From contig OY771506.1 of NCBI GenBank assembly GCA_963674705.1, forward strand, positions 4,256,001-4,320,000: a stretch of 64,000 bases of DNA. Direction: 5' to 3'. Below, piece by piece: positions 23,316 to 35,934 of the stretch. A program made the translations under genes and the position numbers. The stretch is from Phycisphaeraceae bacterium (GTDB lineage: Bacteria > Planctomycetota > Phycisphaerae > Phycisphaerales > Phycisphaeraceae). The notes beneath the pieces were generated by a model that did no database searches, was not told the origin of the DNA, and was given only the letters and a program-made list of their open reading frames with translations. Position 1 is the stretch's first letter, and each line of letters opens with the position of its first letter.

Positions 23316-23343
23316 GTTATACATAACATATATTATCGGACTG
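23316..23343. other. dif-like XerCD recombination site (left junction of the provirus)
   Basis: Minus strand CAGTCCGATAA-TATATG-TTATGTATAAC: 11-6-11 layout, XerD arm TTATGTATAAC resembles E. coli TTATGTTAAAT. Confidence 0.8.
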
Positions 23344-23370
23344 AAATGCTGGCAGGGCGTTCGCAAACCC

Positions 23371-23673
23371 TTAACCACCCGCTAGTTGCCTAACAAGCGG
23401 GCCAGCCGATAATTTAGGCTCTTTTGAACTTTCGTCAAGCTGAAGGGTTTCGATGATGCCGAACACCTGATCTATCGGCACATAACCCGCCGCCGGATGA
23501 TTCGGCGGCTTCAATTCGTCCAGCTTGCCCGCGATGATCCAATTTGAAATGGTCGTCTTCGAGCAATGCAACAACCTCGCGGCCTCGGCTTGTGTCATTA
23601 CGCCGCCCGGATATTTGCGGATGATTTGCCGCCACCAAAAATACTTCACCATGTCCGGCATTTCGTTCGACAT
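23371..23673 (-). CDS. Helix-turn-helix DNA-binding protein (excisionase/HTH_17-like)
   Basis: MTQAEAARLLHCSKTTISNWIIAGKL; start reassigned to MSNEM (23673). Confidence 0.7.
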   Translation of the reverse strand: MSNEMPDMVKYFWWRQIIRKYPGGVMTQAEAARLLHCSKTTISNWIIAGKLDELKPPNHPAAGYVPIDQVFGIIETLQLDESSKEPKLSAGPLVRQLAGG

Positions 23674-23989
23674 ATGATCGGCCCGCCGTGATGTGTCCGT
23701 TAGGGTTATACCTAGCGGCCCCCAGAATATCGGACAATGCCTTCCCGTCAACATCCAACGGCCGATCGACCGGCAACGGCCCACGCTCCGGCATCGCTCC
23801 CGGGTCCGGCTGCACGACTTCACCGCCGCCCGGCTCAGGGTCACCGACTTGCACTTCAATATCGGTTGTACTCTTGTACGTGCCCTTGCCCGTCACACCC
23901 GGCGTCACCTCACAGCCCGCCAGCACGACACAACCGACCAACGCCCACGCGGTCAACAACAACGCAACTACAACACTAAAACGCTTCAT
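23435..23989 (-). CDS. Proviral lipoprotein, unknown function
   Basis: MKRF + hydrophobic stretch + LAGC lipobox; GAGGTG RBS; the 3' part overlaps the HTH gene, so the true end is uncertain. Confidence 0.55.
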   Translation of the reverse strand: MKRFSVVVALLLTAWALVGCVVLAGCEVTPGVTGKGTYKSTTDIEVQVGDPEPGGGEVVQPDPGAMPERGPLPVDRPLDVDGKALSDILGAARYNPNGHITAGRSYVERNAGHGEVFLVAANHPQISGRRNDTSRGREVVALLEDDHFKLDHRGQAGRIEAAESSGGGLCADRSGVRHHRNPSA

Positions 23990-23993
23990 CCGA

Positions 23994-24608
23994 TCACCTC
24001 TTTCTTAGATAACCCTCGACGGTCGCAACCGACGTGCCTCCGCCGTCGCCATAGAATGCAAAACGGAATCCCGGCCCCAACCAAACCCGATGCCCATCGA
24101 ATGACTCAGGCACCGCAAGAGCAGACGTCGGCCACTGCCACGTATGGTACGTCGTGCCGCTCGAATCTCTAACGAGCATCCGTGTCGTAGGACCACCCTT
24201 CATCGTCAACCGCGTTAACACAAAGTCGCTACCGTCCGGCACGATGTACATAACATTTTGAGCCGTCGTGAGATTCTCGACCGTGACACAAATATGATTT
24301 TCAGGACGCACTACCGGATTGCACACAAGCAACCCGCCCGGCTCCAGCGACTCTCCATCCTCAAGAAATGCCAACTCGACCCACTGACCGACCTGGGCAG
24401 CATGCGACAGGTACACGCGGTCAAAGTCATCCGCACGCCGAACCCTCGAACCGAACCGCATCGGCACCGAAGACTGCTCGCCCTTATCGAAAGCAATCGA
24501 GATAACCGCGTCGTGAGAACTGGCATCGTACACCATCACCGACCGGCCGCTCTCTTTGCGTAGAACAGTTTTCTTTTCGTTGTCTAAATAGTAACGCAGC
24601 GTTTTCAT
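23994..24608 (-). CDS. Putative vertex/spike protein 3 (shared N-terminal domain + beta-rich C-terminal domain)
   Basis: Start MKTLRY (24608) in ATGA overlap; VYDASSHDAVISIAF...FDRVYLS...QWVELA. Confidence 0.55.
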   Translation of the reverse strand: MKTLRYYLDNEKKTVLRKESGRSVMVYDASSHDAVISIAFDKGEQSSVPMRFGSRVRRADDFDRVYLSHAAQVGQWVELAFLEDGESLEPGGLLVCNPVVRPENHICVTVENLTTAQNVMYIVPDGSDFVLTRLTMKGGPTTRMLVRDSSGTTYHTWQWPTSALAVPESFDGHRVWLGPGFRFAFYGDGGGTSVATVEGYLRKR

Positions 24609-25465
24609 GTAACCGGCTCGATAATTAAGTATTGCGGAACAACTGAATCGGGACATTGATACACATCGGCATCTATCCAATAAATACCGGCAGGCGACGA
24701 CCCGCCCTCTTTGATGTAATGATGCGGCCACCGCGTCGGCGTCGTCGTCTTGTTGTAAACAAAAAACAACATTTCCCACCGACAGCCGACACCCGGATAG
24801 TAACGCATGCGGATCTCTGGATCGGAGTAGATCGTCACCGTATCCCACTCCCGCGAATCATCCGCAAGCCCGAATCCCATGCCTAACCACTTGCCGCCGT
24901 CCCAAGTGAACAGCCGGTCCCAACTTCCGTACCCTGCATAAGGATCAGACCCAAAATAAATGAACTGCGAGCCGTCGCAATCGAAGTTTGTGTCCAGCTT
25001 AACAGGCGGTCCCGAATACATGCGGTACTGCTCATACATCCCGGCAGGCGGATCGCCGCTTGGAAGTGATGGACAAGGCACCGGCAAACCATCGCCCGGA
25101 TCGAACGGCGGATCAGTGCTTGGATCGTTCGGACCTGTGATGTTTTCTGGTAGCCACCTCTGGCCGATTAAAAAGTAAGGCTCCCAGCACCCTGTCGGAT
25201 GCCCGCGTTGTTGCGTCAACGCCACCGTCAACCACTGATCGGCCTGCGATTGCCACTCAAACAACACTTCACGGCTCGGCATCGCCCGCCAGCCCTCGCC
25301 GATCGACATCGACAACGGGTCGCGTGCATCACCGCGGCAATCACGACTCACCGCCGACACTTCGGCGTCGATGCTCGATGCACGCACAACCTGCACGCCG
25401 CTTGTCACACCCGGCCAACGCTTGCGGCCGTCCTCGCCAAGATGAAGTGTTAGCAACGTCGCCAA
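24605..25465 (-). CDS. Putative vertex/spike protein 2 (shared N-terminal domain, Pro-rich linker, aromatic C-terminal domain)
   Basis: VVRASSIDAEVSAV...IGEGWR...EWQSQADQWLTV; start uncertain (TTG 25465 after GGAG, or ATG 25531). Confidence 0.55.
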   Translation of the reverse strand: MATLLTLHLGEDGRKRWPGVTSGVQVVRASSIDAEVSAVSRDCRGDARDPLSMSIGEGWRAMPSREVLFEWQSQADQWLTVALTQQRGHPTGCWEPYFLIGQRWLPENITGPNDPSTDPPFDPGDGLPVPCPSLPSGDPPAGMYEQYRMYSGPPVKLDTNFDCDGSQFIYFGSDPYAGYGSWDRLFTWDGGKWLGMGFGLADDSREWDTVTIYSDPEIRMRYYPGVGCRWEMLFFVYNKTTTPTRWPHHYIKEGGSSPAGIYWIDADVYQCPDSVVPQYLIIEPVT

Positions 25466-25481
25466 AACGATCAACGCTCCA

Positions 25482-25811
25482 CTACACAGCAACGGGTAAA
25501 GGTGTTGGCGATACGTAAAATTCCGGCTCATTACCGACCGACCCTTCTGGATCACCCCACGCGATTAACTCAACCCATGCGTCCGGCTGTTCATCCCAAC
25601 TTAGCTCGATACGCTCGTAAGGAACGAACCGCCAACCGTCTCCGATTCGCAGCAGAAGCGTTTCCCCGTCCGCTGGACCGCCTCTGAATGTTGCCGATAT
25701 AACCGCGTCGGCGTCGCTGGCTCGCCTTACGAGCAAGGCATGGCCCGCACGTGGTATCACCTTGCTTAGCTGCTCGGTGTTTAGTGCCTGATTGAATGTT
25801 TTGAAACTCAT
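25482..25811 (-). CDS. Putative penton-like protein (shared domain only)
   Basis: LVRRASDADAVISATF...IGDGWR...YERIELSWDEQPDAWVELI; 109 aa, beta-rich. Confidence 0.55.
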   Translation of the reverse strand: MSFKTFNQALNTEQLSKVIPRAGHALLVRRASDADAVISATFRGGPADGETLLLRIGDGWRFVPYERIELSWDEQPDAWVELIAWGDPEGSVGNEPEFYVSPTPLPVAV

Positions 25812-26282
25812 TCACTTTAAAGCCTTGAACAGCATATAAAGACCGAACGCCACAAGTACCGGGGTAATCAGCTTGTTGATTATTCGCCCGGCTTCGCTTT
25901 CTGTGCCCGTCGCCGATCGCGTCGTATCCGCCAACGCACTCAGAGCCGTCGACGTTTGCTGATCCGCACGCTGTGCGAATCCTGCGAACGTACCCGACAA
26001 CCCCGACAATGCAGTATTCGCCAGCCCTGAAACGCTGTTGATGATATTTGAGACGTCCGCACCCTCAAGCCCATTGATCCGCGTTGTGTTCGTCGTGTTT
26101 TCGTGATTGCGGATCACCGATGAGTAACGACCTCCGACCGTGCCCACGGCTTTCACTACGCCGATAGGCTCATCCGACGTAAGATCAAGCAGACCGTCAT
26201 CGTTACCGCTGACCGTTTGCTTTTTGCTTATCGCCGTCGTCTTGCTGGACGAACTCGAATTACCGCCGCCAAATAAACCCAT
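25812..26282 (-). CDS. Proviral membrane protein (Gly/Ser-rich N-terminus, C-terminal TM); possible DNA-entry protein
   Basis: MGLFGGGNSSSSSKTT...; C-terminal PVLVAFGLYMLFKALK. Confidence 0.65.
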   Translation of the reverse strand: MGLFGGGNSSSSSKTTAISKKQTVSGNDDGLLDLTSDEPIGVVKAVGTVGGRYSSVIRNHENTTNTTRINGLEGADVSNIINSVSGLANTALSGLSGTFAGFAQRADQQTSTALSALADTTRSATGTESEAGRIINKLITPVLVAFGLYMLFKALK

Positions 26283-26566
26283 TACTTACGCCCCTTCCTG
26301 CGACGACGACGACGACGCGACGAACTGCTATCCGTCAGCATCCACACAATCGCCAGGACGATCACAACCAACGCGATTAATGACGCAAGCGGATTGCGTC
26401 GCGTCATATCACGCAGAAAATCAGGGAATCCGATACCTCCGCCAAAGTCGACAATATCGCTGCCGTTATCCTGCGTACCGCTGAATCCTGAACACGCAGA
26501 CGATGAAGTGATCCCCGTACCTAAACCGGGAAACGCAAAGCTAGTACCCAACAGTCCGGCACTCAT
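26282..26566 (-). CDS. Small proviral membrane protein with poly-Arg tail
   Basis: TM LASLIALVVIVLAIVWML then SSSSRRRRRRRKGRK. Confidence 0.65.
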   Translation of the reverse strand: MSAGLLGTSFAFPGLGTGITSSSACSGFSGTQDNGSDIVDFGGGIGFPDFLRDMTRRNPLASLIALVVIVLAIVWMLTDSSSSRRRRRRRKGRK

Positions 26567-26983
26567 TTAAACCGCCTTTGTTACCTTGCCCAGCACACCA
26601 CGAACGGCCGGGCTGATCGTCCACAACACCATAATCACGGCAACACCGATCACAGCCAACGCCGCCCACTTGCCTTGAGCCCACAGCATCTTTAACGGAG
26701 CAAAGACGCCATCACTACCCCAAACACGTTCAACCTCTTTTGGGTACTCATCCGCAAACCGCGACGAAAACTCGAACGGATCGGCTACTACCTGACTTGT
26801 AATCAGCCCGGCATCACCCGGCAGATTACCCAGTAGATCGGATGCACCGCCTTGAATCATCGACGGAACACTTGCCGCGACATTGACTGTCGTATTCCAT
26901 GCACGGCTCATCGGGTCGATCCACCACCGCTTAAACTCATCGGCGTAGGCATCGGCAAATTGTCCAATCGGACCTACCGGCAC
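26567..26983 (-). CDS. Proviral membrane protein (C-terminal TM)
   Basis: WAALAVIGVAVIMVLW; GAGGTG RBS; abuts its neighbours. Confidence 0.65.
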   Translation of the reverse strand: MPVGPIGQFADAYADEFKRWWIDPMSRAWNTTVNVAASVPSMIQGGASDLLGNLPGDAGLITSQVVADPFEFSSRFADEYPKEVERVWGSDGVFAPLKMLWAQGKWAALAVIGVAVIMVLWTISPAVRGVLGKVTKAV

Positions 26984-26987
26984 GCGA

Positions 26988-27440
26988 TCACCTCCGCATC
27001 ATCAAGACCAGACCTAAGAACCCCGCGACGATCAACGCACCAACAGTCAGGCTACGCCGTGCCGCTTCCTGCTTTGCAACAGCGACCGCCCTATCCTGCT
27101 CAAGCTGTGCCGTGTCCTGATTCTTTAGCGAGCCGTAGCTATCACGCTCGATCTTGTCCACGCTCTCACGTGTGAAGTCGAGTATCTCGGCTTGCAGACG
27201 GTTTACACCCGCCCCAGCCAGCTTGTTGAAACTGTCCTGAAAGAAGTCGCCTAAGCCACTGAACAGACCGCCCGATCCGTTAGACACTTCACCGCGTGTC
27301 CCCGCCGATAAGTCCTGCGTCACTGTGAAATTCTCCAACGGGCTCGAACCGTTTGTAAGCGGATCAAAACTGATCGACCCAGCGTCCAAGACGCTCGGCG
27401 ACGGAAACGACTCGCCAAAATCAAAAGACATTAACGACAT
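26988..27440 (-). CDS. Proviral membrane protein (C-terminal TM)
   Basis: GAGGAGG RBS; C-terminal LTVGALIVAGFLGLVLMMRR. Confidence 0.7.
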   Translation of the reverse strand: MSLMSFDFGESFPSPSVLDAGSISFDPLTNGSSPLENFTVTQDLSAGTRGEVSNGSGGLFSGLGDFFQDSFNKLAGAGVNRLQAEILDFTRESVDKIERDSYGSLKNQDTAQLEQDRAVAVAKQEAARRSLTVGALIVAGFLGLVLMMRR

Positions 27441-27461
27441 CGAGATACCTCCTCGAACCGT

Positions 27462-27511
27462 AAAACCGCACCCGGCCGGGATAGCCTTGACCCGGCCGGG
27501 AAACGCTGCGG
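27462..27511 (-). terminator. GC-rich hairpin after the capsid gene (terminator/attenuator-like)
   Basis: CCCGGCCGGG x2 (27471-27480, 27491-27500) inside CCGCA/TGCGG, followed by TTTT on the minus strand. Confidence 0.55.
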
Positions 27512-27515
27512 CTTA

Positions 27516-28520
27516 TCACCTCGCGACGGGTTCGCGGATGTAGTCTTCGATCACGTAAATCTTGGCGTCCGTGCCGGTCGTCACGTCCAGCGTGATTTCC
27601 ATTTCCTGACTGCCAAAGACGCTCAACAACTGCTCGGGATGGTTCATATGAGCGATATCGAGCCGATGCAAGCCGACCAACTCGGTATCGTCCAAGTTGT
27701 AATCAAGCATGTTCTGAACTCGCAAACGCTCGGCCGAAACACTTCGTACACTGGTCTGGCCGATGTCGATCCGCACATTGTTCAACACGGCATCGGACCA
27801 CGCACCATTGACGAACGACAGGAACGTCAGAGACGAGTATTGCTTGCCCGTACCCAGCTTGATACGCAAGTCGGTAGTGGACGACGTGACGGGCTGGATG
27901 CGGTAATTGATGAACCGCCGCCAGTATGGCCAGCCGATGCCGCCGCGTGAACCATTGACACCTCTGGCAACTGCCATTGTGTCAACTTCCAGCTTTGTAT
28001 CGCTTGAAATCGAAGACGTTCCGGCACCGCCTGCTGCGATGTCGTCCGCGTCTCCCCACTTCACATCAAGCGTAAGCTCGTTTTCATTCGTCGCATCAAG
28101 CAGCGACTGATAAGAGCCGATGTCGATCGGCAGGCGGAATCCGATGTCAAACGACTGTGCTGCACCCGCACCGACATCAGACCACGTAGGACGATGCCCG
28201 CCAGTCTCGAAGACGTTCAGCCACGGCATGTAGAAGCCCGGCAGACGGATAAGCTTGCTGTCGCCGTTAAGCACAAGCTCTATTTCCCGGATCAGGTCCA
28301 TCGCACCATTTACCGGAGCAACAAACGCCGTACCCGGCGTAGCCGTACCGCTCAACCGGCATTCAATCGACTGGATCGGTAATTGACGATCAATCTCGGT
28401 GTTCGCCGGATTGTTTTCGTCGTACTTGATCGGAATTTCCGTTTTGTTCGGCATGAACATCGCCAGACGCATCGCTGCATCGACGACCGGAAGCCCCGTA
28501 TTAATCCCAAAACTACGCAT
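27516..28520 (-). CDS. Probable double-jelly-roll major capsid protein
   Basis: 334 aa, two beta-rich halves with parallel patterns (LIREIELVLNG...LDATNENELTLDVKWG / LNNVRIDIG...LRVQN..DY...GLHRLD...EITLDV); lies downstream of a packaging ATPase and upstream of membrane genes. Confidence 0.7.
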   Translation of the reverse strand: MRSFGINTGLPVVDAAMRLAMFMPNKTEIPIKYDENNPANTEIDRQLPIQSIECRLSGTATPGTAFVAPVNGAMDLIREIELVLNGDSKLIRLPGFYMPWLNVFETGGHRPTWSDVGAGAAQSFDIGFRLPIDIGSYQSLLDATNENELTLDVKWGDADDIAAGGAGTSSISSDTKLEVDTMAVARGVNGSRGGIGWPYWRRFINYRIQPVTSSTTDLRIKLGTGKQYSSLTFLSFVNGAWSDAVLNNVRIDIGQTSVRSVSAERLRVQNMLDYNLDDTELVGLHRLDIAHMNHPEQLLSVFGSQEMEITLDVTTGTDAKIYVIEDYIREPVAR

Positions 28521-28567
28521 GTTTCACCCTTTCAAATGGTGCGAACGCTACCCAGTGAACCGATGGC

Positions 28568-28690
28568 TTAGAGGCCCGGAACCTTGGCGAACATACGCGA
28601 GACGAAGGGGGTAATTACGGCACCGATCGCCACACCGATTGCGGTGATGATGATGGTGTTAACGTTCGACTTGCTTAACAGACTGGCCAC
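28568..28690 (-). CDS. 40-aa single-TM proviral protein (below the ORF-track cut-off)
   Basis: AGGAGG RBS + GTG: MASLLSKSNVNTIIITAIGVAIGAVITPFVSRMFAKVPGL*. Confidence 0.7.
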   Translation of the reverse strand: MASLLSKSNVNTIIITAIGVAIGAVITPFVSRMFAKVPGL

Positions 28691-28764
28691 TTTGGCACCT
28701 CCTAAATGGGGTTATTGGTTTCACAAAGACATAAACCACGTACCCACCAGCGAGAAAGTCAAGT

Positions 28765-29280
28765 CTAAAACACGACTTTGCCAGATTTGATCGGCTCGCC
28801 GCGTCGCTTCGCGTAGTAGTGCAACGGGCTCAACTCACACGCCCGACGCAATTCAGGATCGGCCCAATCCTCTGACAAGTCGCGTGCATCGTCTGCACCC
28901 ACTAAGAACGCAAACAACATGCCGCACTGATCGCGGGCCGACAGATCAAGCATCTTGTGCCGCTGCGCTATCAACGCAACGCTATGGCCTTGATGCCGCC
29001 CGCGTGTAAGCATCGGCAACGCCTGATCTCGATACTGCCTGAACACATCCGCCGCCTCATCAATGAACGCCAGACACCCACGCGACGCCCAAAACACCTC
29101 CCGAAAATGCGACCAGTCAGAACAAACCAGCCCCGACCATCCGTTAGCGTTTGGCCCACTGGATCGACCGATCGGATCGTAGATAATGCACGGCGTGCCG
29201 TCGCTACTCGCCGTATTTGAAAGCCTTTTTGCTAGGGCCGTCTTTCCGCTTTCCGTCTGGCCCACTATTTGAATGTGCAT
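28765..29280 (-). CDS. Genome-packaging ATPase, FtsK/HerA superfamily (A32/P9-like)
   Basis: Walker A GQTESGKT at the N-terminus, IIYDP, Walker B AFIDEA, RGRH arginine finger, IAQR; 171 aa, no TM. Confidence 0.85.
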   Translation of the reverse strand: MHIQIVGQTESGKTALAKRLSNTASSDGTPCIIYDPIGRSSGPNANGWSGLVCSDWSHFREVFWASRGCLAFIDEAADVFRQYRDQALPMLTRGRHQGHSVALIAQRHKMLDLSARDQCGMLFAFLVGADDARDLSEDWADPELRRACELSPLHYYAKRRGEPIKSGKVVF

Positions 29281-30040
29281 CGGGCTTTTTCTCCGGCTTG
29301 CCGCTTTCCGTCGTTTCCTTCACCGTCCACCGCTTGAGCATCACACGGCCAACGTACGCCGCCGTGAACAAGAAAACAGCTATCAATGGGTGCAACCTCC
29401 AACCCGACGCAACAGCCGACGCTGACCGCCTGATGCTTGCACGCTCCGCGTCGGTAGGTGGCTCACCTATCGCCGCTTCCGTCGTGTTCAAAGCGATATC
29501 TGCGATCACCTCCCCCGCCTCTGGCCCAAGCTCGACGCCCGGCTTAACCGGCTCCGCTGCCACTTGCGGAGCCGTGGCTTGCGACGGATCGGGCCGGGTC
29601 GGGTCGATGATACGACCCGGCCCAGCCGATACGCTGGCATCCGTGCCCCTTGGCTTGACGTTTGGCTTGCTGGTATGGTCGCCGCCCTTGAACGTTGAAC
29701 CGTCCAACAGCTTTTCACCCTCGCGAGGTTTTCGCGGTCGACCGCCTTTTTTGTTCTTGAATACCGGCACGCCACGACGGACGATCGGTTTACCATCTTC
29801 GCCGAACTGGAATAACTCCGCTGGCATCTTCAAAAACTTGGGTTTTATGTAATCCCCGCCACGACCGGACGCGGCCGGGGTTTGGGTTTCAGCGTTTGGA
29901 GTTTTCGACGGCAAGGGTACATTTCTTGCAGCGTCGGCTTTTACTTTGTCGCTGATATCCCCAACCCCGGCCAACGGTTCGGCCGTGCTGGTGGTTTCTA
30001 AACTGGGAATCGGCTTATTAACTGGTTGCTGGGTTTCCAT
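29204..30040 (-). CDS. Proviral protein: disordered Pro/Lys-rich N-terminus, AT-hook-like motif, C-terminal TM
   Basis: KKGGRPRKP; HPLIAVFLFTAAYVG; overlaps the ATPase start. Confidence 0.65.
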   Translation of the reverse strand: METQQPVNKPIPSLETTSTAEPLAGVGDISDKVKADAARNVPLPSKTPNAETQTPAASGRGGDYIKPKFLKMPAELFQFGEDGKPIVRRGVPVFKNKKGGRPRKPREGEKLLDGSTFKGGDHTSKPNVKPRGTDASVSAGPGRIIDPTRPDPSQATAPQVAAEPVKPGVELGPEAGEVIADIALNTTEAAIGEPPTDAERASIRRSASAVASGWRLHPLIAVFLFTAAYVGRVMLKRWTVKETTESGKPEKKPDAHSNSGPDGKRKDGPSKKAFKYGE

Positions 30041-30106
30041 AAAGGCACTATTAAGCCCCCATGATTAACCCATGCAACTTATTACCTGTACTTTCCCGAT
30101 TAGGTT

Positions 30107-31708
30107 TTACGCTGTATAGCCTACCCTTTGTATGCATTCGTCGAATAATGCTTTTTCTGGCTGTTGTCGGCGTTTTGGTTCTGGCTGTGCCTGGGGTTTT
30201 GCTTGTGGGATTACCACTTGCTGCCGCTTGGCTTGTTCCCTGTCCGCGTCATGAGCGAGCCGTCGATAAAACTGCTGGCCCATCTCAATTGAGCCGTCTG
30301 GCAACCGGGTTTTACGATCGGTTGCAGCACCGTATGACACCAGACGCAAAGCCTCACCCCGCAGAATCCGACGATACCTGATCGCGTCGCGGAACTTCTG
30401 GCCAATGTCCCTGTACTTGGCTACTTTTTCACGCACCGCCGCCGCGATCGCCCACGGCTGTTTTTCCAACTGCTCGGCCGCGTCGACCAGATCACGCACC
30501 TCTGCCGCCAGATCTACCGAAGACAACTCCGAGATATCCCGGTCTGAATCAATCGCTATCAGGCTTGACCAGCAACCGACAATCTGCCGCACCAACTGCG
30601 ACCGCTCAGACTTCACAGGCTCGGCCAGAATCACCGGCTTTGCTTCACCCATCCCGAACCATCCCCGCTCGACTGCGAGCCACCACGGCAGCGTATGCTG
30701 CATCGTGTGATGCTTTCGCGGATCATCAACTACCCTCAACCACTTGCGAGTAAGGTAGGCCCACACGTTGCCCAACTGTGAAAGCATGTCTTCAGCGTCG
30801 CCGACGCCCATCTCTTTTATCTTCTGTCGGCGTAGCTGAAATTCGACTCGGATCACACGATGATTTTCCGGCACGGCTTCGATGCCCCACACATCATAAA
30901 ACCACTGCTTTTCCCCCTTCTTTTTCTGTATCTCTACTGGCTTATCGTATAGCCTTGCTTTCAACGGAGCCGACGCACCTCCTACACCGATGCCGGTTAT
31001 CCGTCGCGACGTTCGCCACTGTGCCGTATCGACCGCCCGCGTTACAAAGTGTTCCTCAAGCCCCGCATGGAAGTCATCGTCACGGATCAGCACATCAACG
31101 CACAGATCGGCCCGGCTCGCCTTCACATCTTGTACACGCCCGCCGTGCCGCTCAATGAGCCGACGTAAGTAAAGCATCAACACTTTGACCGTGTAACGCC
31201 AACACCCCTCCGACCTCACCTCGACGATCATAGACGGCTTCGACATCGGCGATAACCACGAACCCATTTTGATTGTGAGATACCGCGACTCAATCAGCCA
31301 GCTATAACCGTTAACACCGAACGCACGGACATTGGCGACCAGATCACCCCACGCGGCCGGCCCGTCGATCACGATCGGTTCACGCTCGCCTGATCGCTCA
31401 ACAGCTTTCGACTTGGCATCGTCCAGCAGGTCAAACAATGCAGGACGTGCCGATCCATGCGTTGCATGCTCACCCCTCGACCAGTCGATATTGACAGCCG
31501 CGACGAATGTATCCACGCCGTATGACAACACGCGGGCGGGCTGATCGTCGCCCAGTGGATCGCATGGCAACCGGCACGGCCGCATTTCCTCGACCTGATC
31601 GGGGAGGTTGAACCCCCCGCCACTCACGTTAGCGGGGGGGCTGATAGTCACCAGCCCCCCAGTATCCGAACCGCCGATTTTTGGAACCTCTACACCTCCA
31701 AACCTCAT
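30107..31708 (-). CDS. Rolling-circle replication initiator, Rep_trans family
   Basis: GVDTF, SRADLCVD, ARLYDKPVE (catalytic Tyr), RVEFQLRR. Confidence 0.85.
   Translation of the reverse strand: MRFGGVEVPKIGGSDTGGLVTISPPANVSGGGFNLPDQVEEMRPCRLPCDPLGDDQPARVLSYGVDTFVAAVNIDWSRGEHATHGSARPALFDLLDDAKSKAVERSGEREPIVIDGPAAWGDLVANVRAFGVNGYSWLIESRYLTIKMGSWLSPMSKPSMIVEVRSEGCWRYTVKVLMLYLRRLIERHGGRVQDVKASRADLCVDVLIRDDDFHAGLEEHFVTRAVDTAQWRTSRRITGIGVGGASAPLKARLYDKPVEIQKKKGEKQWFYDVWGIEAVPENHRVIRVEFQLRRQKIKEMGVGDAEDMLSQLGNVWAYLTRKWLRVVDDPRKHHTMQHTLPWWLAVERGWFGMGEAKPVILAEPVKSERSQLVRQIVGCWSSLIAIDSDRDISELSSVDLAAEVRDLVDAAEQLEKQPWAIAAAVREKVAKYRDIGQKFRDAIRYRRILRGEALRLVSYGAATDRKTRLPDGSIEMGQQFYRRLAHDADREQAKRQQVVIPQAKPQAQPEPKRRQQPEKALFDECIQRVGYTA
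31613..31660 (-). other. Putative double-strand origin / nick-site hairpins inside the 5' end of rep
   Basis: Minus strand GGGGGGCTGGTGACTATCAGCCCCCCCGCTAACGTGAGTGGCGGGGGG: two overlapping G/C stems, with CTAAC at the stem-loop. Confidence 0.65.
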
Positions 31709-31887
31709 TGCTCGCCCCCCTTCTCCCGCTTCGCGTTACGGATCACCTGGCTATCTGTAACGCTTTCTTTCTTACGCTCACGATATGCCTTCTGACGGCA
31801 TTTCGAACTGCAATACCTAGCGTCAGCCTGCCCAACGAAGTACCCCCCGCACTGACGGCAACTACGGTGATAATGGCCCCAACTCAT
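31705..31887 (-). CDS. Small zinc-finger protein (CxxC...CSxxC)
   Basis: MSWGHYHRSCRQCGGYFVGQADARYCSSKCRQKAYRER; ATGA overlaps at both ends. Confidence 0.7.
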   Translation of the reverse strand: MSWGHYHRSCRQCGGYFVGQADARYCSSKCRQKAYRERKKESVTDSQVIRNAKREKGGEQ

Positions 31888-32738
31888 GCCGCACCCCCCA
31901 TCAGCAACACAGACAAGCACCGACGCGGCAACCGCTCGCGACGCTTGCTGTCAAACATGAACACGTCCGAAATCCCGTCATTCTCAAGCAGACGCCCCAG
32001 CCGCCATACGCTATCGCCGTCCTCATGACGCAACCACTCAACCAACACGATTGATCCTGGTGGCGTCGTCTCGGCCATATCGTCCGTCAGACGCCCGACG
32101 AGCGTATCTAACCGCGTCGGCATGCCAGACGGCACAGTCATCGCCTCAGCCAGCACACGCCCAACGTCGGGCTTGTGCGGCCGCTGTGCATCCCAATCAT
32201 TCTTACGCTGCACCTCGACCGGGGGCGGGAGTATCGGCTTGCGCTTATTGACCAACCGCTGAATCTCTGCCAACTCACATCCGGACACATCACGCGGCCT
32301 GAACCTCAGCACGTCCTTACGATATCTCGACTCAGCTTGTCCCAGCCCCGGCATCCAAACCACCGACACCTCTACGGCACACTTGCCGTAAAACGGCTCG
32401 CGTCGACACTCGGCGTCCTCATGGCCGATATGCCCCTTCACCGTTTCAGACAAGCATCGTGCCTGCGAACGGCCAATAAATACCACATCTTTTGTTTTCG
32501 CATCACGAACATAGAACACGCCGCGACGCTCGACCATCTTGTCCAAAAACAATGCCCACAGCCCATGTCGACGCGGATGCACAAACGGCGTGCGACGCCC
32601 GGCCACGATCGCTGGCACCTCCGCCGACACTAACCGCTGATTCTCTCTCGCCCGGCCGCACTCATCCGAACACGTTTTTGCCGCTGGCCCTCGGCCCAAG
32701 TATGGCTTTCCGCACTGGACACAAATTCGCTCTCTCAT
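31884..32738 (-). CDS. Zinc finger + degenerate GIY-YIG-like domain protein
   Basis: CVQCG...TCSDEC; GVFYVRD...VVFIGRS...L...VKGH; GGAGG RBS. Confidence 0.55.
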   Translation of the reverse strand: MRERICVQCGKPYLGRGPAAKTCSDECGRARENQRLVSAEVPAIVAGRRTPFVHPRRHGLWALFLDKMVERRGVFYVRDAKTKDVVFIGRSQARCLSETVKGHIGHEDAECRREPFYGKCAVEVSVVWMPGLGQAESRYRKDVLRFRPRDVSGCELAEIQRLVNKRKPILPPPVEVQRKNDWDAQRPHKPDVGRVLAEAMTVPSGMPTRLDTLVGRLTDDMAETTPPGSIVLVEWLRHEDGDSVWRLGRLLENDGISDVFMFDSKRRERLPRRCLSVLLMGGAA

Positions 32739-33019
32739 GCCACACCTCCAATCACCGCATACGTACCGGCCAACTCCCGATCCTCGATTAGATCATCAAG
32801 CAACACCGCCTCAGACCACCGGACCACCGCGAGAAATGAAACCGCCCCATGACGCACCGATAGCAGCAAACGGGCCTTATCCCGCAGCTTTACGACTGCC
32901 TCATGTTTCAGCTTCCCGGATTTTGGATCACGAACCCGTACCCGATCACCGGGCCGATATTCGCGTGACGGAATGTAAACCCAATGGCCACCGATCCATC
33001 GAAAACGTCTGCTATCCAT
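32735..33019 (-). CDS. Small basic proviral protein, first gene of the element
   Basis: 94-aa ORF in ATGA overlap with the next gene; YRPGDRVRVRDP (KOW/SH3-like pattern). Confidence 0.55.
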   Translation of the reverse strand: MDSRRFRWIGGHWVYIPSREYRPGDRVRVRDPKSGKLKHEAVVKLRDKARLLLSVRHGAVSFLAVVRWSEAVLLDDLIEDRELAGTYAVIGGVA

Positions 33020-33194
33020 AGCAAAACCACCAGACCGCTTATAACGGTCGGACAGCTTTCAATGTGTCCAAAAGCAGGGTATTATCACCCTGCCGGATCG
33101 TTCCTGTCACAGAACTTTCTGTCCGGCCGGTCCCGAAGGTGCGGTAAACCTTGCGGGACATTTTGATTTTAACGGTTATTCAATTTTCATAAGT

Positions 33195-33222
33195 CCTTGT
33201 CCTAGCATATATTATCGGGCCT
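33195..33222. other. Degenerate dif-like site (right junction)
   Basis: Minus strand AGGCCCGATAA-TATATG-CTAGGACAAGG: XerC-like arm and spacer conserved, XerD arm degenerate. Confidence 0.75.
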
Positions 33223-33300: not shown

Positions 33301-35934
33301 TCACACTTCTACACGATCCAGGCTGGTACGGACTTGTTCGGCAAGAACGGTGACGTGGGCTGTGTCGAATATCTCCAGATGTCCGCCGGGGATTGAATAC
33401 GTGTGGATATTGCTTCTCACCAACCCGCGCCAGCCATTGTCATCAGCGACAGACACAAAACGCATCCAATCAGGTTTCTCAATCGATTCAAACAGGTGCA
33501 GATCACCTTCATAGTATCCCGGCCTATAGGATTCGCGGGCCCGGCGTGATGCAACTCTCAGCTTAGATAAGGCTTCGGTTATCTGGCCGTTGCCTTGCGG
33601 TATGGAAACTTCATCTTCCAGCCACATGCCGGCATCTTCATCACGTGAATTGCTATTCACTTCAGATGATAAACCAAACCTCTGACGCACCTTTTCCATA
33701 GCGATGGCGGGTGTCAGTTCACTCAAATGAATCCACAACCGCTGTGTGAACGGCTTAGGACGAACAGCACCCGGTGCAGATGTATCTAATAAACCTAAAT
33801 AGGGCACATCTCCGCCCTGCTGCTTGATCTGGCAGGCGATCTCGTATGCGACCAGACCGCCGAATGAATAGCCGATCAGCGATACTGGACCGTCCGGCTG
33901 AATGTGGCGAATCCGGCGAAGCAGTTCCGCGGCCAGATCAGGAATATTGTCGCAAGGTTGTTCGGCTTCGTGCAGACCCGGGAACTGCAGGCCGTAGATC
34001 GATCGATCGTCACCGATCAATTCAGCCAAACCACGATAACTGAACGGCGTACCGCCCCGCCCGGGTAAACAAAAAAGTGGGGGTTTACCGTCACCATGCT
34101 TCAAGCAATATACGCCGCGATCCTGCGTGTCCGTCCCTTCACCCTGTAGCCATCCCGCCATTTGTCGGATGGTCGGTGATCCATAGAAAGACGACAATGG
34201 AAGCGATCGATCCAGAATGCGTTCAACTTCCAGCACTGTCTGCACCGCGAGCAGCGAATCACCACCCAGATCAAAAAAGCTATCAGTGACACCAACCTCA
34301 ACCAAACCTAGTAGTTTCTGCCAGATAGCTGCGAGCTTCTTTTCAAGATCGGTTTGGGGCGGGATGAACTCGACGCCGGTATCGATACGATCGAGGTCCG
34401 GCTCGGGCAGGCTTTTGCGTTCGGTCTTGCCGTTCGGCGTTAACGGCATCTTCTCGATACGAACAAACGTATTAGGCACCATAAAGCTGGGCAGCTTCTG
34501 ACGCATTTCTGCACGCAGCGCATGAATGCTCGGGCCTGGCTGCTCCTTCGGGATGATGTAGCCGATCAGACGCATGTCGCCGTGCCTGTTGGGCTTGGCG
34601 GTGACCGCGGCCTCACGCACACCTGAGCATTTACCAAGCACTGTTTCCACCTCAAGCATCTCGACGCGGTTACCCCGGATCTTGACCTGTTGATCCTTTC
34701 GGCCTCGATGGACCAGCATGCCCTGCCCATTGAATTCACCAAGATCGCCGGTGAGAAATACACGTGCCTCGGGATCGTCCGGATCGGGCCTCAGAACTTG
34801 TTGCGTCAGTTCAAGCCGGCCCAGATAACCGCGCATGATGTATCGGCTGCTGATATGGATGTTACCGATCACACCCCGCTCGACCGGCCGGCCCTCATCA
34901 TCAACGATGCGTACATCAACACCCGGGAACGCGTAACCGGATGGGATATTGGAGCCTTCTTCCAAAGGCGTGTCTTCGGTGATGTTGTAATGGCAGGACA
35001 TGCCAGTTTCCGTAGCACCGAGCCCACCTAGCAGCTGACAGTTTTTACTGAAGTGTGTTCTGAATAGCTCGACATCATTGCGGGTCGAGGCCTCGCCACC
35101 GAACTTGACCATCCGGATCTCGGGGAACAGGTTCTCGCCCTTCAGTTCCCGGGCAAAATGCCTGAAGATCGTGACGATCGAACAGTAGATCGTAATGCGT
35201 TTTTGTATCAGCCAATCGGGCAATCCCAACGTGCCGGCTTCCTTGACCGGGTAATGACACAGCGCCATGCCGTTTAACGTTGCGTTGAAAACATCGCGCA
35301 TCCCGCCGTAGACGCTGCAGGGATAAAGCAGGGTGGCCCGATCCTGTTCGGTGAGTTTCATCCAGGGTACATGGCGGAGCATGTTATGCATGACCGCGCG
35401 TTGCTCCATCATCACGCCCTTGGGTTTGCCCGTTGACCCCGAGGTGTAGAGCACGTACGCCAGTCTGCCCGGGTTGATATCCAAATCCGGATTCGTTTCA
35501 TCTGCTGCGCCGCCGGGTAGGTCGATATTCAACACCGGTATACGATCGCCCACGATCTGCCGGGCCATCGCTTCACGGCGGTTGTTAGTCAAAACAATCC
35601 TGGTGCCGCAATCTTCGAGCATCGTAGCGATGCGCTCGGCCGGATAGTTGGGGTCCAACGGCACATAGGCCCGCCCCGCCTTGAGTGCTGCATAAATCGC
35701 CGTCGTCAAAGGCAATCCCTGATCGACAAGCGTCGCAGCAAATTGGTCCTGCTGAGACGGTTCACCGAGTTGATTCAACAACGCATTAGCGCTGATATTC
35801 GCCAAGGCATTGAGTTCGCCGTAGGTCGTCACCCGTCCTGCACTATCCATCGCGGTCCGGTCAGCGAACTTGCGCACCTGCTCTTCAAACCGCTGGGCGA
35901 GTGAGCATTCGGCTGGATTGGAGGAATCATACAT
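33301..35934 (-). CDS. Stand-alone NRPS-like protein: adenylation-thiolation-thioesterase
   Basis: YVLYTSGSTGKPKG, TGDLG, GRKDQQVKIRG, PNGK; FFDLGGDSL (PCP); GYSFGG (TE). Confidence 0.92.
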   Translation of the reverse strand: MYDSSNPAECSLAQRFEEQVRKFADRTAMDSAGRVTTYGELNALANISANALLNQLGEPSQQDQFAATLVDQGLPLTTAIYAALKAGRAYVPLDPNYPAERIATMLEDCGTRIVLTNNRREAMARQIVGDRIPVLNIDLPGGAADETNPDLDINPGRLAYVLYTSGSTGKPKGVMMEQRAVMHNMLRHVPWMKLTEQDRATLLYPCSVYGGMRDVFNATLNGMALCHYPVKEAGTLGLPDWLIQKRITIYCSIVTIFRHFARELKGENLFPEIRMVKFGGEASTRNDVELFRTHFSKNCQLLGGLGATETGMSCHYNITEDTPLEEGSNIPSGYAFPGVDVRIVDDEGRPVERGVIGNIHISSRYIMRGYLGRLELTQQVLRPDPDDPEARVFLTGDLGEFNGQGMLVHRGRKDQQVKIRGNRVEMLEVETVLGKCSGVREAAVTAKPNRHGDMRLIGYIIPKEQPGPSIHALRAEMRQKLPSFMVPNTFVRIEKMPLTPNGKTERKSLPEPDLDRIDTGVEFIPPQTDLEKKLAAIWQKLLGLVEVGVTDSFFDLGGDSLLAVQTVLEVERILDRSLPLSSFYGSPTIRQMAGWLQGEGTDTQDRGVYCLKHGDGKPPLFCLPGRGGTPFSYRGLAELIGDDRSIYGLQFPGLHEAEQPCDNIPDLAAELLRRIRHIQPDGPVSLIGYSFGGLVAYEIACQIKQQGGDVPYLGLLDTSAPGAVRPKPFTQRLWIHLSELTPAIAMEKVRQRFGLSSEVNSNSRDEDAGMWLEDEVSIPQGNGQITEALSKLRVASRRARESYRPGYYEGDLHLFESIEKPDWMRFVSVADDNGWRGLVRSNIHTYSIPGGHLEIFDTAHVTVLAEQVRTSLDRVEV

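Follow-up and report, generated by a model that had tools for sequence, protein, structure and literature searches.

How does a provirus that encodes no integrase come to lie in a bacterial chromosome, and which recombinases brought it there? The question is raised by an element in the genome of a Phycisphaeraceae bacterium, found in the 64,000-nucleotide stretch of DNA that was analysed as a whole (hereafter the window; genome positions 4,256,001-4,320,000, within a single contig of 5,539,117 bp). Its features are collected in Table 1.

Table 1. Junctions and genes of the element, in window positions
Feature	Position	Strand	Remarks
Low junction, complete dif	23316..23343 (genome 4,279,316-343)	minus	XerC-type arm from the phage, 6-bp spacer, XerD-type arm from the host
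HTH protein (HTH_17/excisionase-like), about 100 aa	23371..23673	minus	Terminal gene, next to the XerC arm of attP; start codon inferred
Late genes	23435..27440	minus	Several small proteins with a hydrophobic segment; putative minor virion or spike proteins
Capsid protein (MCP), 334 aa	27516..28520	minus	Predicted double jelly roll
A32/FtsK-like genome packaging ATPase, 171 aa	28765..29280	minus	Pox_A32 E 0.0014 (below Pfam cut-off); PHROG packaging family E 5e-12
Conserved protein, 278 aa, between Rep and ATPase	29204..30040	minus	C-terminal hydrophobic segment
Rep_trans-like rolling-circle replication initiator (likely), 533 aa	30107..31708	minus	PHROG endonuclease E 8.8e-9
Early small genes	31705..33019	minus	Two with zinc-ribbon motifs
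High junction, half site	33195..33222	minus	XerC-type arm from the host; spacer the same as at the low junction; XerD-side arm from the phage, degenerate (4/11)

Borders and gene content of the element

Read on the minus strand, the low junction (23343-23316) is CAGTCCGATAA-TATATG-TTATGTATAAC and the high junction (33222-33195) is AGGCCCGATAA-TATATG-CTAGGACAAGG. Both were re-read exactly as a first-pass annotation of this DNA had given them, including the 13-bp core that they share, which comprises the seven inner bases of the XerC-type arm and the 6-bp spacer. The core occurs exactly twice in the 5,539,117-bp genome, at 4,279,327 and 4,289,206 (a core-to-core distance of 9,879 bp), where about 0.08 copies per genome would be expected from composition; the uniqueness check that the annotation had called for was thus passed genome-wide. 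Over their full length, the XerC-type arms of the two junctions agree at 8 of 11 positions and the XerD-type arms at 4 of 11.

A repeat this short might have arisen by chance or as an assembly artefact, with the true borders of the element elsewhere, and no joint at either att site, from an excised circle or an empty site, was seen in the contigs of four public runs from one study, contigs being assemblies that drop rare forms. Against this, one public-run contig, assembled from short reads, spans both junctions in one piece; as the run may be the source sample itself, this speaks only against an assembly error. The same layout recurs with other spacers in six related capsid loci, and a congener settles the matter. 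In G004, a genome of the same genus without a capsid match in a capsid profile search, both flanks are found at 90-94% identity and meet at the core, in an empty site identical at 27 of 28 positions to the reconstructed one. This unoccupied locus, joined where the annotation had expected it to be, refutes the rival, which we consider extremely improbable. In the G004 site the XerC arm is the one seen at the high junction and not that of the low junction, as predicted if the high-junction arm is the host's own.

The main genes all run on the minus strand from the half site towards the full dif, in the order zinc-ribbon genes, Rep, 278-aa protein, ATPase, capsid, small membrane proteins and HTH gene, and the core ORFs are open. 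A sigma-70-like site at 33110-33081, recognised by consensus match only (10/12), points into the early genes. By weak to moderate sequence similarity, the 533-aa protein is likely a rolling-circle Rep: tblastn relates it to the replication endonucleases of Thermus phages OH3 and OH16 (E 3e-5 to 7e-3), Pfam Rep_trans is matched at E 0.047 and by only one of six family members, and no solved structure was matched by sequence. Homologues of the 278-aa protein are present in six of eight related loci, and in all eight the ATPase adjoins the MCP. For the late genes, no Pfam match above cut-off and no confident family was obtained; the 156-aa and 109-aa ORFs among them have homologues in related elements.

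The capsid protein is predicted to be a double jelly roll (DJR) of STIV/PRD1-like type. Its AlphaFold2 model reached a pLDDT of 94.9 with an alignment of 145 sequences (33.9 from the single sequence), and Foldseek matched this model to the STIV MCP (E 4e-16, TM 0.76) and to PRD1 P3 (TM 0.75), with the MCPs of the tectiviruses Wip1 and GC1 as its top matches in BFVD. At the sequence level, Pfam P2_C is matched weakly (E 0.13 for this capsid, 2.6e-6 for the best family member), and tblastn gave no match among 50,697 phage records. The predicted fold and the A32-like ATPase both agree with the DJR-type virus that had been proposed on first reading.

The element was also said to lack an integrase, and this was borne out. 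Tyrosine recombinases (PF00589) are matched nine times in the genome and never in the element, the single serine recombinase match (PF00239) lies outside it, and no integrase remnant was found when the element, translated in six frames (140 segments), was searched with a XerD profile and with a relative's integrase (best E 0.025 and 0.86, respectively). The host encodes XerC (338.8 against an NCBIfam cut-off of 335.15), XerD (330.0 against 329.6, passing by only 0.4 bits) and FtsK, in which FtsK gamma is present.

The insertion site as the likely chromosomal dif

The low junction, alone in the genome, matches a generic dif pattern without a mismatch. It is likewise the top site genome-wide under a matrix built from the sites of 20 relatives (44.0 bits, with the runner-up at 18.2), a matrix that is partly circular, its sites having been found with this very motif; the XerD arm of the high junction scores -14.8 bits under the same matrix. 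Allowing up to two mismatches, 20 of 60 relatives have exactly one copy of a 19-base segment of the site, and none has its reversed control. Aligned with one another, the 20 sites show invariant inner bases on the XerC and XerD sides and variation in the spacer and the outer bases. The XerC and XerD arms were assigned by likeness to the dif of Vibrio, and the XerD-side arm is similar to the Vibrio arm as quoted in two reports (PMC12715192; 10.64898/2026.06.12.731946). A second repeated dif-like motif of the genome was set aside, since it is an odd-centred palindrome and not an 11-6-11 site. Scanning genome contigs with the dif motif returned 80 loci, of which about 55 are titled Phycisphaeraceae, Phycisphaerae or Planctomycetota.

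The position of the site relative to replication was assessed from strand polarity. The cumulative count of the KOPS-type octamer, which we take to be GGGNAGGG, has its maximum at genome position 4,277,264, and within 500 kb the octamer is counted 39 times on the plus and 15 times on the minus strand on one side, and 6 and 27 times on the other. The sets of the 10, 30 and 100 octamers with the strongest skew, selected from regions far from the site, change polarity at 4,277,658, 4,277,659 and 4,279,616. Strand polarity thus switches at 4,277,264-4,279,616, with the dif site (4,279,316-343) within 2 kb. Plain GC skew peaks on a plateau at 4,062,966, 216 kb from the site. Of the skew switch that had been expected here, the part resting on KOPS and octamer polarity is therefore seen at the site, whereas the part resting on plain GC skew is not; it is the former that points at the site.

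We conclude that the element is inserted in what is likely the chromosome's dif. The first-pass annotation had also held that the element occupies dif with a degenerate XerD arm and that integration regenerates one dif. All three statements agree with the junctions: the complete 11-6-11 site at the low junction is the best in the genome, the XerD-side arm of the high junction retains 4 of 11 positions at -14.8 bits, and a full site is present at the low junction only. We infer that after integration the low junction acts as the working chromosome dimer resolution site. An earlier genome-wide prediction of dif is reported to have failed for Planctomycetes, in the one genome that it covered (0/1; PMC3025954).

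Related elements and the route of insertion

A capsid profile search of 144 genomes of the family identified nine capsid loci in seven genomes. Seven lie at dif, one in tRNA-Ala by means of its own integrase, and one, the third element of genome G288, at a degenerate dif-like site, unoccupied in G422. Among the seven at dif, six combine a full dif with a half site, and for one a half site is seen at a contig edge; the absence of an integrase from these related dif elements was judged from ORF lists. The XerD arm is degenerate in the studied genome (G000), G270, G454 and one G288 element. In the second G288 element and in G522 the layout is mirrored, the XerC arm being the degenerate one, and G422 has a half site of the latter kind, its other end lying beyond the contig. 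Trees of capsid and ATPase (nine rows) contain a single starred clade (100/99 and 100/100), which unites both G288 dif elements with G422, the other branches being weak; the handedness of attP therefore differs among closest kin.

Capsid-bearing elements share the site with others. Among the 80 dif loci, five further elements with half sites were recognised, four inovirus-like ones that carry Zot-family ATPases and a Rep element of 3.2 kb, a count from which the weak half-site loci L092, L112 and L126 were left out. The inovirus-like elements occupy the same dif site with the same 11-6-11 geometry. In 10 of the 11 two-junction elements the spacer is the same at both junctions, though spacers differ between hosts; G454 has one mismatch. 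According to ORF lists, all 11 have the degenerate arm on the early-gene side and genes that run towards the rebuilt dif. Leading-strand octamers of the studied genome also point at dif in all 11 (32:12 in the studied element, 33:11 per 10 kb in the host replichore), a count in which kin are not independent and coding-strand bias is a confounder. The co-orientation of prophages with replication and KOPS appears to be the subject of an earlier paper (PMC3603311).

Beyond the family sample, a class-level search returned 5 of 401 genomes, all from the same family, and a phylum-level search also returned 5 of 401, three of them outside the family on short or weak matches. Relatives of the MCP or the ATPase were absent from the viral and metagenome contigs searched; five viral contigs matched Rep only and had no capsid genes. 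A 77%-identical capsid is encoded on a contig of 9,824 bp, close to unit length.

In our reading, this 9.9-kb provirus with a predicted DJR capsid and no integrase, situated in the likely dif, was with high probability inserted by the host. By its lack of a recombinase, its place in the likely dif with one canonical dif rebuilt, and the XerC, XerD and FtsK of its host, it would count as an IMEX (integrative mobile element exploiting Xer). XerC and XerD would recombine a double-stranded, one-armed attP with the chromosomal dif, and a crossover within the shared 6-bp spacer would join the XerC arm of the phage to the XerD arm of the host in one full dif. As one full dif is rebuilt, dimer resolution could continue, and as the XerD arm of the other junction is poor, FtsK-driven excision would be rare, as has been measured for TLC-type sites.

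A different use of the same host enzymes is the route of CTX, in which a rolling-circle single strand folds, an inverted partner rebuilds attP, a single XerC exchange takes place and replication resolves the product. The likely rolling-circle Rep fits such a route, and so does a sequence some 60-80 nt upstream that nearly repeats the XerC arm and spacer in inverted orientation (p 0.003 in 300 shuffles), in a stretch that folds with a z of -2.7. No such partner accompanies the other 10 elements, however (20 tests, all p >0.12), so that over 22 tests the corrected value is about 0.07, and a fold-back partner present in 1 of 11 elements falls short of the CTX type. The spacer, moreover, is a normal 6-bp one, identical in 10 of 11 elements, whereas the overlaps of CTX and VGJ are described as mismatched (10.64898/2026.06.12.731946). 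This identity across both junctions favours a complete two-step exchange of TLC-like type over the CTX/VGJ route, to which we assign little probability.

Recombinases other than XerCD would be a further possibility, either a host or prophage tyrosine recombinase supplied in trans or an integrase of the element's own that has since been lost, with the dif-like sequence merely as its target. Seven other tyrosine recombinases are indeed present in the genome, and the G016 relative, which has its own tyrosine integrase, indicates that the module can be swapped. Yet the G016 element lies in tRNA-Ala, flanked by a 44-bp repeat and 850 kb from its dif, the unrelated inovirus-like elements share the 11-6-11 geometry at dif, and the six-frame search left no integrase remnant. 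We regard this explanation as very improbable.

A TLC-like exchange by XerC and XerD would need an activator, and the only candidate by position is the HTH gene beside the XerC arm; alternatively, occasional activation by FtsK or a factor supplied in trans might serve. The HTH protein matches Pfam HTH_17 at E 1.6e-5, below the cut-off, and a PHROG excisionase family at E 1.9e-4, which makes it a candidate regulator, directionality factor or Xer activator. The gene has the same position in G000, in G270 and in the first of the G288 elements, three of which none is the nearest relative of another; in G454, whose att sites are of the same type, it was not seen, and at the end of other dif elements lie genes for ribbon-helix-helix or zinc-ribbon proteins. 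A homologue search returned only two alignment members and one generic HTH, and no solved structure was matched by sequence.

Its resemblance to known activators is slight. XafT/DUF3653 was detected neither in the element nor, above cut-off, in the genome. Aligned with the XafV family, the HTH protein reached an hhalign probability of 18%, against 52% for a host LacI-type HTH used as control, and the score of its C-terminal part against XafV was reached by 2 of 100 shuffles. XafV itself has a weak DUF3653 match; the HTH protein has none. An activator or directionality role for this protein is conceivable, if rather doubtful.

We speculate, and consider it unlikely as a whole, that the lysogeny module of this planctomycete DJR lineage can be exchanged and that its small, excisionase-like HTH protein, not related to DUF3653, activates XerCD or gives them direction on an attP whose XerD arm is degenerate, while sister elements reach the same dif in the opposite orientation with a degenerate XerC arm. 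If true, the HTH protein would add a third kind to the Xer activators, and a mirror-image pair of substrates would exist in nature within one clade.

Comparison with known Xer-exploiting elements

The first-pass annotation implied that a DJR virus on the Xer route would be new, and this does not hold. DJR phages that use dif, some of them through 17-bp one-armed attP sites, are in print for Vibrio (PMC12715192; PMC9966536), and others are reported from Rhodobacter (PMC10589892) and Flavobacterium (PMC9719478). For Vibrio, one study counts 258 DJR prophages, 160 of them of dif type, with attP full, left-armed or right-armed and with integrase-type relatives alongside (PMC12715192). Searches of the openly available main texts gave no description of such an element in Planctomycetota or Phycisphaerae in connection with DJR, dif or XerC, although supplements, notably that of PMC5894146, could list such hosts. 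Among these points the host lineage alone appears to be new. Added here are the dif motif of Phycisphaeraceae, the occurrence among close relatives of a degenerate XerD or XerC arm, and an HTH gene at the position of XafT without XafT/DUF3653.

Altogether, these results extend the hijacking of Xer by tailless viruses to Phycisphaeraceae, and they supply a dif motif for a phylum in which genome-wide prediction is reported to have failed (PMC3025954). That the same dif collects both DJR proviruses and inovirus-like elements recommends it as an integrase-free landing site for genetic tools, of which this group has few. The mirror-image sister phages, in turn, offer a direct test of how a one-armed attP integrates without XafT.

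In its att sites, the element resembles TLC phi and the gonococcal island, with which it shares a double-stranded 11-6-11 attP, full spacer identity and a non-canonical XerD arm. A small HTH gene adjoins the XerC arm, the place that xafT takes in TLC phi (PMC6744903). TLC, however, depends on XafT, an XRE HTH protein with DUF3653, a domain that the element lacks, and TLC is itself a satellite of filamentous phages; its poor XerD arm is stated to lower FtsK-driven excision (PMC6744903; PMC9226527). With VGJ phi and its XafV (10.64898/2026.06.12.731946), the element shares a Rep of rolling-circle type, likely in its own case, and the placing of a small HTH gene immediately next to attP, but VGJ is filamentous, with a 7-bp non-matching overlap and a XerC-first route. 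Xer activators are said in the same report to diverge to 18% identity.

Outside Gammaproteobacteria, Jorvik (PMC10589892) and phiCjT23 (PMC9719478) are likewise presented as integrase-less, membrane-type DJR phages with dif-like att sites. They differ from the element in their hosts, phiCjT23 also in its ssDNA genome and its full sites on both sides, and Jorvik in the variable position of its attB. The dif-type DJR prophages of Vibrio (PMC12715192; NO16/'Asemoviridae', PMC9966536) are comparable in several respects: they combine a DJR capsid with insertion at dif and no integrase, have a 17-bp one-armed attP of either hand, coexist with integrase-type relatives and share arrays with inoviruses. 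The present element is set apart from them by the phylum of its host, by P15/XafT (DUF3653) and P16 not being detected, by a different HTH gene at its end, and by a capsid whose predicted fold finds its best matches in STIV, PRD1 and Wip1 rather than in PM2, with a weak P2_C match in sequence.

DJR proviruses at and away from dif

In the related genome G288, two related DJR proviruses (L045 and L046) lie opposed across a single full dif; the XerD arm is degenerate in one and the XerC arm in the other. The third DJR element of this genome occupies a degenerate dif-like sequence distant from dif, and the same insertion site is empty in G422. It is without the Rep found in the other elements, and its list of ORFs showed no integrase. 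It may have entered a secondary site through Xer. The integrase-type sister provirus of G016 lies inside tRNA-Ala and has a 44-bp repeat.

Coordinates of the features discussed
Feature	Genome	Position	Strand
Integrase-type sister provirus (L043, L044)	G016	C1:2,432,456-2,443,073	
Paired DJR proviruses (L045, L046)	G288	C1:228,880-249,852	
Third DJR element (L041, L042)	G288	C1, about 3,605,600-3,616,400	
Origin markers	G000 (window genome)	941,458; 1,102,146; 1,410,938; about 1,790,000	
Palindrome, examples	G000	488,098; 682,378; 1,426,227; 2,166,020-2,167,295; 4,220,784-4,224,844; 4,323,312	
Stand-alone adenylation-carrier-thioesterase (NRPS-like) gene	G000	window 33301-35934	-
Extra XerC arm and spacer (L068)	G522	C1:1,885,088-1,885,115	

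Host sequences of the window genome

The NRPS-like gene immediately adjoins the window half site; it is assigned to the host, because the congener with an empty dif (G004) also has it. The origin markers of this genome (the GC-skew minimum, two dnaA genes and the octamer minimum) are discordant, being spread over 850 kb, which suggests inversions near the origin.

A near-perfect palindrome of 33-35 bp occurs at 22 places in the genome, in clusters whose location is unrelated to the terminus; its last tabulated copy falls slightly outside the window. It consists of two inverted XerD-arm-like halves and was rejected as an 11-6-11 site, being odd-centred with its halves one base apart. It is likely to be a protein binding site or a dispersed repeat.

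Other features at or near Phycisphaeraceae dif

In G522, the extra XerC arm and spacer match exactly; the ORFs around them look host-like (purN/gluQ-type), and dif is 1.85 kb away. Inovirus-like elements and one 3.2-kb Rep element were also found at Phycisphaeraceae dif (loci L073, L116, L117, L138, L111 and L148). At L148, inovirus-like genes adjoin dif and no second junction was found within the sequence examined. The junctions of these elements are one-armed, and a Zot-family ATPase is present in all four of the inovirus-like dif elements tested.
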